The position numbers were made by a program, and so were the translations under genes. Of a DNA stretch of 64,000 bases, positions 5,714 to 12,122 are shown in pieces. This DNA comes from Eledone cirrhosa (lineage: Eukaryota), in assembly GCA_964016885.1 (NCBI GenBank), contig OZ024742.1, positions 265,298,001-265,362,000 on the forward strand. The letters are read 5' to 3'. Every line of letters begins with the position of its first letter. Within the stretch, counting starts at the first letter, position 1. The notes under the pieces were generated by a model. That model saw only the letters and a list, made by a program, of their open reading frames with translations. It was not told the DNA's origin and did not search any database.

Positions 5714-5769
5714 GTATATATATAAAATCCGTATATTTTCTATATATACATATATACATATATATATTA

Positions 5770-6632
5770 AGAACAGATATATATGCGTGTGTAAATAATT
5801 ACATGCATACACTTATTTTTTAAAATTAATTGAGTTCTTAACACGTGGAATTGATAATAGTTTTAAATAACTAATTAACCCGCATGTATTAAATATTTTA
5901 CTCTTAATTTGGCCAGAGATTTACATTCCCAATTGCCTTTAAAGCGTAACCTTCCGTATTTGCTGCGGTGATGGAATGCGGTTTCTTATTTTGGTATCAC
6001 TTCTGTTTTTAGCCTAAGAAAATATCTATATGCGTGTGTAATTAATACACGCATACACTTATTTTTTTAATTTCAATTGAGTTCTTAACACGTTGGATTG
6101 ATAAAGTTTTTGAAGAAACTAATTAACCCGAGTGTATATTATTTTTTTCTATTATCGTGTATTGAGGTTGTCTCCCCTTCCCGCTTCGTGACTCTATGAA
6201 ACTTCCTCAGTCAAAAGACTGCTGGAATTTCAAATTTGGCGGTCATTCGATGCGTGAGGGAGCAACTTAGCAGACACGATTTTTAACTGCGGTAAGAATT
6301 TTTTCTTATATCAAAGTTTAATGGGCTTCCACTGAAGATTTATAAGTGCCACACCTAAATATATTCTTACATGAATATATGTTAGGCTTCTACATAAACT
6401 GGAAACATTCTCCCAATTTGTAGAAAACTTATAATGAAACACTTGTTTGGAAAGAGAGATATATTTTAACTTTAATTATATCTCATAAAATAATACAACT
6501 GGCTTTCCACAAAATACACATAGTTAGCACCCCAAACACTTAAATTGGGTTACACTAACATATAACCTAATGTTTGTTGAGTGAGATGGTTACCAGTCTG
6601 AGTTTACCGTTAAGCTATCTCTGTTATTGTAT

Positions 6633-6639
<7 letters not shown>
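5770..6639 (+). mobile_element. Non-coding hammerhead-bearing unit (about 743 nt), retrozyme-like or PLE pLTR-like
   Basis: Junction motif gtattaaatat at 5886 and 6629; internal ~120-bp duplication (5779-5890 vs 6028-6140); HHR at 6327-6452. Homologous, inverted, to 6672-7229 plus 9214-9471. Flanked by (TA)n. Confidence 0.65.
6327..6452 (+). ncRNA. Type I hammerhead ribozyme with long stem II loop
   Basis: ttcca-CTGAAGA-tttataag...cttataat-GAAA-cacttg-TT-tggaa. Confidence 0.75.
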
Positions 6640-6676
<37 letters not shown>

Positions 6677-6851
6677 ACATTAACAGAGAAAGCTTTAAGC
6701 GATACTCTGACCAACTCCATCTCACTCAACAAATATTAGGATATACCTAAGTATAATCCCAATTTAGTGTTTGGGCTAACTATACAGTATTGCGTGGATA
6801 GCTGGTTGTATTATTTTATATGAGACATAATTAAATAAATCTCTATTTCCT

Positions 6852-6974
6852 TCCATACGATCGTTTCGTTATAAGATTTCTATAAGTTGGGATAAATAAT
6901 GTCCAAGTTATGTAGAAACTTGAATATAATCCATAGATATACACACAAGCGGGCCCTTATAACTCATCAGTGGA
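6852..6974 (-). ncRNA. Type I hammerhead ribozyme, canonical core, long stem II loop
   Basis: Reverse complement tcca-CTGATGA-gttataag...(~80 nt)...cttataac-GAAA-cgatcg-TA-tgga: perfect stems, palindromic stem III, GUA site. Confidence 0.9.
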
Positions 6975-7229
6975 TGCCCATGCAATATCGATATGAAAAA
7001 ACTACATCGATATTAATACTTAGTGATGGTCTCCGTCAGTGCTAGAAGGACAGCTAAATTTGAAAAGCCAGTAGTCCTCCAAAAAGAAAATTCACACTGT
7101 CCCCAAAAGGGAAAGGGGATGTCATCGTAAAATATTAAATAATATACACGCTGGTCATTGAAGCCTGTTAGGTATTTTAACCACGTGTTTAAGAACTCAA
7201 TTGGATATTAAAAAAATAAATATATGTAT

Positions 7230-9213
7230 AAGGTAAATTTCTTTAAGTCGTTTGGAAGCCTCGACAATGCAGATGGGTAAATCTCCGGGTAACAAGATCC
7301 GGTGGTGGGGAGAGAGATGTAAGTGGGTGTACGTTGAGATGCGTGGCGTGTATAAGACTGTAACATGTAGAGGAATGAAGGAAAGAACGTAAAGGATAAA
7401 ATTAAAATAACAACACGAGAAAGAGTTACCTTGGGAGAGATTTTAATTGTCCCTATATATTTCGGAGTCTCATTCATCAACTGGGGTTTTTTCCGGGGGG
7501 TGGGGATGGAAAGGTTGTCTGTCGGAAAGGTGCGAAACGTGTCCTCCGCTGTTCGTTGTTTTAAATATCTGAGGTATTCAGCAGAGCGCGCGTGCGCGTG
7601 AAATGGGGTCGGTCAGGCAGAGGTCAGCGGCCGAAGCAGTTCTTTCAATTGTGGGAGTGGGGAGGCGCTAGCTGTCAGTCTATTCTCTGCCTGTTTGGTG
7701 AATGTTACTGTGTGTGCGTGCGTGTGTTGTTGCCTTGTTCCTCTGTATTGGCAGTGTAGTATGTTCGTATGGTGGAATGCTACTGCGTGTGTGTGTGTGT
7801 GCATGTTTTGCTATCTCGCTTGTGTGTGTGTGTGCGTGTGTTGCTGCATCGTTTGTTAACTTAAACCAATCATCGTTTGTTAACTTAAACCAACCACGAC
7901 AACTTCTACCGAAAGGCAGACTGCAGGGACTTGTTCGTCCACTACAAGTCCGCCAGAGTAGGAGACACCAGACACAAGAGACAGAGAGGCACCCAAGGCA
8001 AGTGCTTCCTTAAAATGCCACACCTTGGCGAGAATACCACCAACGCTATCCGCAAAGCTATACGGAGGGAGGGCCTCGACATCCACCTGGCCCACTCGGG
8101 CCCCTCCCTGCGAAGATGCCTCTCCAGGAAACCCGGGAAATCAACTGATGCGTACTCCCTCAGAGAATGACCGATGCGCCATGCGAACTGTTGCCTACGC
8201 ACATACGTCGTGTATAAGATAGAATGTAACAAGTGCAGCCAATACTATATAGGTAGCACAATCCGGCCGTTGCACATCCGGATCAAGGAACACACTAAAA
8301 CCAGGGCCTCGTCTTTCCGGAAACACATAGCCAAATGCGGAAACAAAGACGGAAGGCCCATTGTCACAATTCTAGCGACAGAAAGAAACGTCGGTACGTT
8401 ACGTATCAAGGAAGCACTTTGGATCAAACGCCTAGGGCCACAATTAAACAACCGATCCGAGAGAAGCGAAATGAGGTGGTTGGTTGAAGTTAACAAACGA
8501 TGCAGCAACACACAAGCGAGACAGCAACACACGCACACACACACACACAGTAGCATTCCACCATACGAACATACTACGCTGCCAATACAGAGGAACAAGG
8601 CAACAACACACGCACACACACACACACTCAAGCGAGACAACGCACGCACACACACACACACTCAAGCGAGACAACGCACGCACACACACACACACAGTAA
8701 CATTCACCAAACAGGCAGAGAATGGACTGACAGCTAGCGCCACCCCACTCCCACAATTGAAAGAACTACTTCGGCCGCTGACCTATGCTTGACCGACCCC
8801 ATTTCACGCGCACGCGCGCTGTGCTGAATACCTCAGATATTCAAAACATCGAACAGCGGAGAACACGTTTCGCACCTTTCCGACAGACAATCTTGCCCCC
8901 CCCGGAAAAAACCCCAGTTGATGGATGTGAATCCAAAATATATAGGGACAATTAAAATCTCTCCCAAGGTAACTCTTTCTCGTGTTGTTATTTTTATTTT
9001 TATTTTTATCCTTCACGCTCTTTCCTTCATTCCTCTACACGCTACAGTCTTATACACGCCACGCATCTCAACGTACACACACTTACATCTCTCTCTCCAC
9101 CACCGGATCTTGTTACCCGGAGATTTACCCATCTGCATTGTCGCGGCTTCCAAACGATTAAAGAAATTTACCTTATTATTCCACAATGCTTCAAGCAAAC
9201 TACAATACTCTCT
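7230..9213 (+). mobile_element. 5'-truncated Penelope-like element with inverted 5' pLTR, 3' tail and 13-bp TSD
   Basis: 7229-7897 is an inverted copy of about 8476-9175; tail 9176-9213; TSD taaatatatgtat at 7217-7229 and 9214-9226; GIY-YIG coding relic inside. Confidence 0.9.
7898..8500 (+). pseudogene. PLE ORF remnant: RT thumb fragment, linker, Zn-knuckle and GIY-YIG endonuclease
   Basis: FYRK..RDLFVHYKSA...FLKMPHLGE...VVYKIECNKCSQYYIGSTIRPLHIRIKEH...EALWIKRLGPQLN; in-frame TGA at 8168-8170. Confidence 0.85.
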
Positions 9214-9464
9214 TAAATATATGTATGTACCATCAATACACACATAGAGATATTAAAAAAAATATAATAAATATATGTACGCACCATCTATACACACATA
9301 TAGGTTTTTTCTCAGGCAACACTATCAGACATGAGATACAGGAAAATGCAATCAATATTTCATATAAAGAATAAATAAAGTCATACCTAAATATCTGGAA
9401 TTTTCATATATGGCCATCCAAGAGTATTATATTTAATACATTAACAGAGAAAGCTTTAAGCGAT

Positions 9465-9528
<64 letters not shown>

Positions 9529-10269: not shown

Positions 10270-11392
10270 TAACTTTCTTTTTATTTGCCACCAGGGCGTC
10301 AAAGAGTGGGACAAGTACAATGGGGAAGTTTACATAAAAATGCGTCCTCAATAAGGAGGAGGCAATAACAAAATATAAAAATATAAAATATAAAATATAA
10401 CAAAAATAAATTGAATAACAAAATCCTCAATAGGGAGGAGGCGCCTTGGAGGGGGGGGGGGGTCGCACACACCCCCGAGAAAGTGTGCAACTCTTCTCCT
10501 CAGGAACACAGAGAGAGGGTGCTCCCTTGATCTTTCATCTTTCTCACCTACAGTCTGATGTAGAGTGAAGACCCATTCACACGGGCCATTCTCGCCACTT
10601 TCACCCATCTTTCATAGAAACGGCTGGGGTGCAGCACCTCTCTCTCCATCCTGATCCTTCTTCCGAAATGATATCGGAAGAAACGGACCAGTTGTTGGCC
10701 AGAGAGAAAGGTGTCTGACCTCAGTCCTTTCAGACGCGTCCACGATAAAACCTCTTTCACCATGGCTATTACGCACAGAAACACCGCCTCTCCTTCGTTT
10801 TTGAAGAGGGAAGGCGGCTTGATCGTTACAATAGACTCGGTGGTCAACTGGATCGGTCCCACCCGTGACAGCAATCGTTCGACATAGCCCCACGGATCGG
10901 CAATGCCCGAGCAGTGTACCAATGCGTGTGCAACGGTTTCCTTGTAGCACACGCATCTGGGACAGATCTTTTTCGAGGGGTCCCTACCCGGGCGCCCGTG
11001 TCTGTAGAGCTTTTCTGGAACGGGCAGAGCCCCTCGGTAGCACTGCCAGGCCAGGGACCTCTGGAAGTTATCCATAGGTCCCGAGTTGAATGTCCTACCG
11101 AACAGGTTGGCCAGTTCGGTTTCCTCCATGCCCAGGGCTTCTCCGAGGGCGTTGTCGCACCTGCTAACCACCAGCCCTCTATAGAATGATGAGGTGGATT
11201 CTCCACTGACAGCCGGGTCCGCCTGTCAGAGAGCTGTGAGCGCCTGGGCACACACGGTGTGCCAGGCGCCCAGTTTTCTCGGTTCTTGCTTGACCCAGGA
11301 CTGCAGCTCGGTGAGCGAGACGAGTCTGAGAAAGGCTCGCCTCACAAACGGGGCCCACACCGGTTGACCGGTGAGGAATACCTGGAGGTGTA
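10270..11392 (-). mobile_element. Tx1/L1-clade LINE, 3' fragment (zf-RVT region and 3' UTR)
   Basis: ORF 10548-11171 (SLAWQCYRGALPV..CPRC...ETVAHALVHC) is homologous to 37000-37790; AATAAA-type tail at about 10275. Confidence 0.85.
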
Positions 11393-11457: not shown

Positions 11458-12122
11458 ATATTTGGGGAGGGTCATATTTGCGTAATATTGCCAGAATTAA
11501 TAACAGAACACACTCACTGTTTGGTTGGTTTTCGCTTCTCGCTGTCTTTTATATATATATATCTGCGATCTAACTTACTCGGTCCTCAATGTTGCCATTG
11601 ACTGACCGGTGGTCAAAAATAAAATAATACAGATACAATATAGACAAACACATATATATATAGTTTACATAAATCTTTCGTTGCACATCTGCAACATCGT
11701 CAGTGGTGTTATATTCATTGTTCCTCCTGTTGTGTTGTATGTCTACGCCATTTTTTTTTTTTTTTAATGGCGTAGACATACAACACAACAGGAGGAACAA
11801 TGAATATAACACCACTGACGATGTTGCAGATGTGCAACGAAAGATTTATGTAAACTATATATATATGTGTTTGTCTATATTGTATCTGTATTATTTTATT
11901 TTTGACCACCGGTCAGTCAATGGCAACATTGAGGACCGAGTAAGTTAGATCGCAGATATATATATATAAAAGACAGCGAGAAGCGAAAACCAACCAAACA
12001 GTGAGTGTGTTCTGTTATTAATTCTGGCAATATTACGCAAATATGACCCTCCCCAAATATAACAATATCTGTTTCGACACACGATTTCATATAAAAAACC
12101 TCGCAAAACTAATTCATCGCCG

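Follow-up and report, generated by a model that had tools for sequence, protein, structure and literature searches.

Animal retrozymes without long terminal repeats (non-LTR retrozymes) are described as non-coding elements that carry one type I hammerhead ribozyme per unit, occur as monomers, dimers and multimers of low GC content, have a short palindromic helix III and are found together with Penelope-like elements (PLEs) (PMC7229834; 10.64898/2026.07.22.740005). They are regarded as PLE derivatives (10.64898/2026.07.22.740005), and a circular RNA has been proposed as the template of retrozymes (PMC7229834; PMC4209133). We analyzed a stretch of 64,000 nt from the octopod Eledone cirrhosa (assembly GCA_964016885.1, contig OZ024742.1, positions 265,298,001 to 265,362,000, forward strand; hereafter the window), in which two copies of a hammerhead-bearing unit without an open reading frame (ORF), termed copy P and copy M, lie tail to tail around a (TA)n tract. 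As far as DNA can tell, the unit and its relatives have the features of an animal non-LTR retrozyme, and we assign them with high confidence to that class as a non-autonomous Penelope-type element. The class itself, its size range and its PLE link are already known. The explanation that we favor, on balance, is that the two units in the window are dead ends of an ORF-less tandem repeat of high copy number, which a borrowed PLE enzyme likely copied into (TA)n and whose RNA is predicted to be cut and would then circularize.

The unit of copy M lies inside the range of 51-972 bp reported for animal retrozymes (10.64898/2026.07.22.740005), whereas P units, at 985-1,030 nt, lie slightly above it; a range of 150 to >1000 nt has also been reported (PMC7229834), so that the exceptional length claimed in the preliminary description of this locus does not hold. 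Unlike the described animal elements, the present family consists mostly of dispersed partial copies, the longest of ~3-4 units, targets (TA)n strongly and has a minimal hammerhead of PLE type with a branched loop II of ~80 nt instead of the canonical small loop. Minimal hammerheads are found in the pseudo-long terminal repeats (pLTRs) of endonuclease-bearing (EN+) PLEs (PMC4209133; PMC8557442; PMC11167929), and their helix II of 7-8 bp, helix I of 4-5 bp, small palindromic helix III and fixed 3' end downstream of the hammerhead all recur here, as do partial tandems, microsatellite targets and, in 1/88 copies, a 5' inversion. PLEs are also known for a (TA)n bias, for partial tandems and for pLTR-only non-autonomous elements, the in vivo role of their hammerheads being stated as unclear (PMC8557442), and for a protein that initiates internally and cleaves AT-rich DNA (PMC11167929). 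The present unit differs from EN+ PLEs in having no ORF, in its branched loop II, in the lack of a sequence match to the three PLE families tested and in a genomic pile-up of copy ends at the predicted cut, where no RNA ends were seen for the Anolis element (PMC11167929).

Two further systems are more distant. The non-autonomous Chlamys elements, e.g. MRC1 (PMC8557442), are likewise pLTR-only, with head-to-tail insertions and a microsatellite bias, but most of them have no hammerhead and their 3' end is like that of the autonomous partner, whereas here no partner was found in the families and flanks described below. Plant LTR retrozymes (PMC4918200; PMC5680766) resemble the unit in being non-coding and hammerhead-bearing and in an RNA size of 600-1000 nt; they have type III hammerheads, true LTRs and 4-bp duplications, in contrast to the type I motif, the ragged 5' end and the absence of a fixed repeat at both ends seen here.

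A dispersed family of ORF-less units with a fixed 3' end

DNA searches of the 3.0 Gb genome with the two window copies returned 3,517 and 3,142 first-look candidates, of which 40 each were scored. Copy P is 95-97% identical to 29 other fetched loci and copy M 93-96% identical to 39 other scored loci. Exact matches to the branched-hammerhead pattern number at least 2,472 genome-wide and those to a 20-mer at the 3' end at least 6,937, both counts being lower bounds, and the reversed controls gave 0 in each case; the 100 listed matches to a looser pattern resemble one known subfamily. Units of this superfamily measure 696-1,030 nt (ten natural monomers, taken from cut to cut, of 696-1,009 nt and one further period of 1,030 nt), and subfamilies are ~70-94% alike. 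The absence of an ORF noted earlier was borne out on both strands of the ten natural monomers, in which the longest frame starting with ATG is 22-92 aa and its length is not conserved.

Insertions were characterized on an unbiased sample drawn from the first 100 listed matches to the 3' 20-mer. Ninety of these were fetched (the ten others being five upstream units of dimers, three loci already in the set and two others) and 88 were kept after two more upstream units of dimers had been dropped. Read in the sense strand of the hammerhead, copies have a fixed 3' end and a ragged 5' end: (TA)n follows 55-85 nt after the start of the motif in 80 of the 88, as it does at the 3' end of 30/30 subfamily M loci, and 5' ends lie anywhere from 92 to 1,644 nt from the 3' end, none of the copies running into an ORF. 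Copies longer than one unit continue upstream into a further unit across a conserved junction; in one subfamily this applies to 21 of 68 copies, 11 of which extend >310 nt beyond the first unit, and the longest reaches 2,905 nt. Head-to-tail repeats with at least two hammerheads thus exist at the family level, and the fixed 3' end, ragged 5' end, partial tandems and microsatellite target together make up the insertion signature of a PLE. On this insertion pattern, mobilization of the unit by a PLE enzyme is likely. The preliminary description had proposed a retrozyme-like element derived from circular or multimeric RNA and had suggested a search for tandem arrays and circularly permuted ends in the genome. 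The retrozyme-like character stands at the level of the family, with thousands of dispersed copies, partial multimers and no attached ORF; the head-to-tail multimers were found, and random circular permutation was not, there being one fixed 3' end.

In the window (Table 1), copy M is interrupted by a later, unrelated PLE. The 13 bp that flank this insertion are present once in the uninterrupted relatives L002 and L011 and are therefore a true target-site duplication. With the insertion taken out, the minus-strand unit is 764 nt long (258+556-13-37), as had been proposed, and related multimers (L013, L021, L023, L030, L063, L067) have periods of 763-771 nt. The repeats at the two ends of copy M are identical over exactly 37 bp. 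Terminal redundancy was thus correctly recognized for this copy, as one truncation point among many: given the spread of 5' ends among its relatives, 37 bp is not a fixed feature. PLE insertions can have an optional tail of 30-40 bp; the repeat of copy M is located at the ragged 5' end.

For copy P the redundancy was not upheld. Its proposed period of 743 nt was derived from the 11-mer gtattaaatat, which is indeed present at 5886 and 6629, yet the period is 985-996 nt in tandem relatives that share 95-97% identity with copy P; the match at 5886 occurs because that position is part of the internal ~247-nt duplication of subfamily P. Mapped on the natural monomer L048 (989 nt), copy P covers positions 312-989 followed by 1-192, that is 0.88 unit, and on these grounds a 743-nt unit with redundant ends was rejected. 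A unit of 743 nt is found in a sister subfamily without the internal duplication (L102).

The two copies are clearly diverged, as first described, being ~75% identical over 372 alignable nt. Since they belong to different subfamilies that are dispersed separately, we rejected the possibility that the pair forms a single composite element, and the tail-to-tail layout looks as if each copy had inserted independently into a single palindromic (TA)n tract. L016 and L211 hold comparable tail-to-tail pairs. Neither window copy should be able to release a monomer, because the palindrome of P is broken, M is interrupted and each carries only one hammerhead.

Table 1. Features of copies P and M and of the inserted PLE, in window coordinates.
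Feature	Positions	Strand	Remarks
Copy P, 5'-truncated member of the long subfamily	5768..6640	+	~873 of ~990 nt; 3' end enters (TA)n
Internal ~247-nt duplication, subfamily P	5768..6154	+	5768-5906 vs 6015-6154, 83%
Predicted type I hammerhead, copy P	6326..6454	+	motif, covariation
Conserved 3' structured domain, copy P	6463..6637	+	closes at fixed 3' end
(TA)n tract common to the 3' ends of copies P and M (target site)	6634..6672	.	sequence
Conserved 3' structured domain, copy M	6670..6842	-	
Copy M, 3' piece	6674..7229	-	556 nt, including one copy of the target-site duplication
37-bp repeat, 3' copy, unit end (copy M)	6674..6710	-	
Predicted type I hammerhead, copy M	6852..6974	-	motif, covariation
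13-bp target-site duplication, left	7217..7229	.	
Later unrelated insertion: 5'-truncated PLE, inverted pLTR	7230..9213	+	
GIY-YIG endonuclease remnant in inserted PLE	8171-8482		PF01541, E 2e-6
13-bp target-site duplication, right	9214..9226	.	
Copy M, 5' piece	9214..9471	-	258 nt; starts 37 nt past one full unit
37-bp repeat, 5' copy (copy M)	9435..9471	-	meets (TA)n from 9472

A predicted hammerhead with a branched loop II

Hammerhead-like cores with stems I and II had been reported for both copies, and we recovered them in each. In copy P the core consists of CUGAAGA at 6332, a U.U at the base of stem II, a branched loop II, GAAAC at 6436 and a predicted cut after the GUU ending at 6447. 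The corresponding elements of copy M, on the minus strand, are CUGAUGA at 6970, a G-C at the base of stem II, a branched loop II, GAAAC at 6867 and a predicted cut after GUA at 6856. Loop 3 of copy M is palindromic (ACGAUCGU), with a computed self-duplex energy of -12.0 kcal/mol for the helix III region, and a single change disrupts the palindrome in copy P. Throughout the family, CUGANGA, a stem II of 7-8 bp, a loop of ~80 nt that folds as two hairpins, GAAAC, a short palindrome and GUH follow each other within a stem I of 4-5 bp.

In an alignment of 25 copies, 95% of the cells of the hammerhead model are paired and double changes occur in 7 of 35 pairs, compared with 2.8 in shuffles. A pair of the loop-3 palindrome changes from A-U to G-C in 11 copies, and position 10.1-11.1 is a G-C pair in 4 rows, the other 21 having no pair there and mostly U.U. 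Downstream of the hammerhead, a ~145-nt domain closes just upstream of the fixed 3' end, a few bases short of it; 96% of its cells are paired and 9 of its 41 pairs show double changes. Covariation exceeds both shuffled and slid controls for the two structures, controls which overstate significance because the aligned copies are relatives of one another and also served to draw the structure. The core and the palindrome are retained across subfamilies that are 70-80% alike, and CUGAUGA is kept in 61/63 units of one subfamily. An Rfam scan returned no hammerhead at E≤1, only microsatellite-driven matches that all fell below the gathering score, and the ribozyme region folded by itself does no better than shuffles in copy M (z 0.63) and reaches a z of -1.87 in copy P. 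The ribozyme call rests on motif and covariation; that the Rfam models missed the branched hammerhead suggests that such elements are undercounted.

Complete monomers fold better than their shuffles in 10/10 cases (z -2.9 to -7.9, 12 shuffles each), with 58-67% of positions paired. When monomers of six subfamilies are compared, the best-conserved stretch comprises the first ~330 alignment columns after the cut, extending past the insertion end, together with the hammerhead. By analogy with the Anolis PLE, this pattern would fit internal initiation with recognition elements on both sides.

An intron in loop II, considered by eye, was dropped as a candidate, since a GT donor is missing there in subfamily M and since base pairs within the loop covary. 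In the literature searched, the coverage of which is incomplete, no description was found of a PLE or retrozyme hammerhead whose loop II is branched. One subfamily (L212, L222, L223) has a longer loop 3 (GAGACGTCC) and a GUC site and could fold helix III without a partner.

Copy ends, probable cleavage and the template

If the predicted hammerhead cuts, some copies should begin immediately after its site. In the unbiased sample, 14 of the 79 copies at risk begin 0-20 nt after the predicted cut, compared with 0-8.5% in other 20-nt bins, and in a logistic model that allows for the length of AT tracts the odds ratio is 4.9 (p 5e-6); two events of this sample are flawed, L302 having been scored against a rearranged reference and L237 being clipped by the locus edge. 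A second sample of 68 copies, from one ~1,000-nt subfamily chosen by another motif (five rows dropped, namely two duplicates, one gap and two unresolved, and four corrected by hand), shows 10 of 85 at risk beginning in this interval against 2.7% elsewhere (p 1e-4). The motif ATATAT, which is present both after the cut and in loop II, provides a same-motif control: (TA)n junctions were seen at 12/100 after-cut sites and at 9/861 loop II sites (Fisher p 1e-7). The after-cut figure is a hand count over the first 100 listed of 942 matches, junctions with G as the eighth flanking letter are missed at both sites, and the control site lies in a helix. These matches overlap the second sample, and L341 is also in the first, so that the tests are not independent. 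Overall, the enrichment of 5' ends directly downstream of the predicted cut is about 4- to 5-fold. Locus L379 consists of (TA)n, an exact 3' cleavage fragment and (TA)n, and the copy at L299 also starts at the predicted cut.

We regard this excess as a probable, although not proven, trace of cleavage, and cutting by the hammerhead in vivo as fairly likely. Most templates would nevertheless have been uncut or religated, because >80% of the copies read through the site. No report of copies piling up at a hammerhead cut was found in the literature searched, with the incomplete coverage mentioned above.

A second hot spot of 5' ends, present in each of the two copies of the duplicated module, is located ~110-130 nt beyond the unit junction; copy P begins at it (5768). 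It coincides with a TTTAGCCTAAGAAAATAT-like motif, at 301-320 and 541-580 of an L119-type monomer and, by eye, also in subfamily M. This second site may mark where transcription starts, the edge of a protein footprint reached when a circle has been copied once around, or microhomology.

The explanation that we favor would proceed as follows. Loci with two hammerheads would be transcribed, and the palindromic helix III would allow two hammerheads to cut as a dimer, releasing monomers of 0.7-1.0 kb, some of which would be ligated. A PLE protein would then nick (TA)n and start reverse transcription internally on the RNA, where the 3' structured domain ends ~190 nt downstream of the cut. Cut RNA would give run-off at the cut and copies of ~180-195 nt; on uncut or circular RNA the enzyme may read past one unit and produce 1.05-mers such as copy M, dimers and trimers. 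Finally, the closest short AT match would serve to join the 5' end to the target.

Units of one locus have private variants in common: 41 in 22 multimers, four sparse multimers being left out, against a null of 0.17-0.68 per pair, and in a second count 3 in 8 dimers against 0.018 expected. At nine P loci, the resemblance among upstream units does not exceed that of upstream-downstream pairs. Both results are compatible with repeated copying of one monomer, and likewise with young tandem donors or with local duplication, cases between which raw distances do not discriminate. That an RNA circle served as template is, in our judgment, marginally the better supposition.

The strongest competing explanation, to which we give a clearly smaller chance, is that the same PLE derivative was copied solely from linear read-through transcripts of tandem loci. 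The hammerhead would then be an inheritance from a pLTR that does little, and 5' ends would gather by RNA structure or AT microhomology. It draws on several of the following results, all of which weigh against the explanation that we favor. Other hot spots of 5' ends are as strong: the after-cut window ranks only third of 50 in the second sample, and windows at the conserved 'GCCTAAGAAAATAT' motif equal or exceed it (4/29, 6/42, 5/47), so that 5' ends can pile up without a ribozyme. Units within a locus show no greater similarity to each other than to the nearest locus elsewhere (14 vs 13 of 27 pairs), and 5/8 dimers have no private variant in common. Insertion by the only PLE tested in vitro, that of Anolis, did not need hammerhead cleavage, and no RNA ends were seen at its hammerhead site (PMC11167929); for Xenopus retrozymes, 8/9 dimers were uncleaved in vitro (10.64898/2026.07.22.740005). 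In most subfamilies here, stem II has a U.U at its base and the predicted cut follows GUU; such a U.U is reported to be tolerated but weaker (PMC3088659; PMC7229834). Closing one monomer into a circle brings no gain in folding energy (-184.7 for the circle, -190.4 for the linear form), and its fold is branched instead of rod-like. Inversions at the 5' end are rare (1/88 copies). Lastly, three abundant PLE families sampled at 30 loci each gave no match to the unit in sequence or 3' fold by blastn, nhmmer and a covariance model of the 3' domain, the last applied to 44 of the 90 PLE loci, 20 others and the window; the genome holds further PLE families.

Against purely linear copying stand the 5'-end excess, which survives the AT-tract and same-motif controls, the copies that start exactly at the cut (L379, L299), and the conservation of core and palindrome between divergent subfamilies. 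In addition, linear copying alone should be unable to lengthen arrays.

A wider version of the cut-and-circularized reading is more tentative, and we would rather doubt than assert it: a long-lived lineage of 0.7-1.0 kb RNA circles that hijack a Penelope enzyme, with a new hammerhead whose stem II bears a three-way junction, and whose genomic copies record the life cycle. If true, copies ending at the cut would stem from cleaved RNA and longer ones from rolling-circle reverse transcription; the genome would provide written evidence for germ-line cutting by PLE-type hammerheads, and the copies would map the recognition domain of the reverse transcriptase (RT). The family offers a cheap general test, in which the starts of genomic copies are counted relative to a hammerhead cut, and a 3' domain mapped by covariation at the insertion end. 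As the class is known, the element as such is of moderate value as a discovery; its branched ribozyme and probable cleavage footprint go beyond the routine.

Penelope-like elements and other neighbors

It is improbable that the unit is an ordinary pLTR of an unfound autonomous PLE, the copies being its truncated remains. The hammerhead features of PLE type, together with the PLE-like 3' end and target, would be expected in that case, and only part of the copies has been examined. However, every copy longer than one unit is preceded by another unit and not by an ORF; none of the 88 unbiased copies, and none of the further loci examined, has a pLTR continuous with an ORF for RT and GIY-YIG endonuclease, the arrangement that the preliminary description had named as fatal to its own reading. 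The upstream flanks of 120 loci contain no common continuation of the unit, and the PLE ORFs found in the vicinity of units stop 473-620 nt short of them and are accompanied by a pLTR of their own. A partner PLE was likewise not found in the flanks of 20 loci, mostly rarer variants, among those listed.

Multiplication as DNA, either of a satellite by unequal crossing-over or by rolling-circle DNA transposition, is very improbable given dispersed, short copies with a fixed 3' end and ragged 5' ends and conservation at the level of RNA base pairs, even though local duplication would also explain the variants in common and one array (L321) could be a DNA duplication. In that array (L321:2300-5100; G000:C1:343057500-343064500), units of 711 and 995 nt and their point variants alternate in an ABAB order, forming a 1,706-nt higher-order repeat that may come from a dimeric circle or from DNA duplication.

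The PLE inserted in copy M belongs to a family with 17,671 first-look candidates, the 3' end of which usually meets (TA)n; the window copy has long inverted arms. As a partner of the unit it is unsupported, since its pLTR has no sequence common to the unit and only the AT-rich target is in common. By eye, this pLTR contains a hammerhead-like variant, UUGAUG...GAAA-UAUA, at 8930-8960 (+), with an inverted copy at ~7450-7490; the CUGANGA scan did not pick up this variant. One of the three sampled PLE families encodes the CX2-5CxxC motif, which has been linked to (TA)n targeting (PMC8557442), and carries a different hammerhead, CCA-CUGANGA.

An abundant young PLE family (L086, L182-L210; 20,683 first-look candidates) has open frames of up to 1,119 aa and the CX2-5CxxC motif, appears to have a long insert in helix III of its hammerhead and was likely active recently. 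At L299:1700-1935, the 3' end of an L086-type PLE is almost directly joined to a unit that starts at the cut, a junction that may be a nested insertion or a template jump from unit RNA to PLE RNA. A near-perfect long inverted repeat at 11570-11948 of the window, with the same translation on both strands and an L086-type hammerhead-like core, is probably a head-to-head PLE remnant. Two reading frames of 225 and 488 aa, at 10548-11225 (-) and from 35526 (+) of the window, look like remains of non-LTR retrotransposons. Elsewhere in the genome, a tandem array at L166-L169 (G000:C4:316.58-316.59 Mb) contains four PLE endonuclease regions spaced ~4 kb apart.

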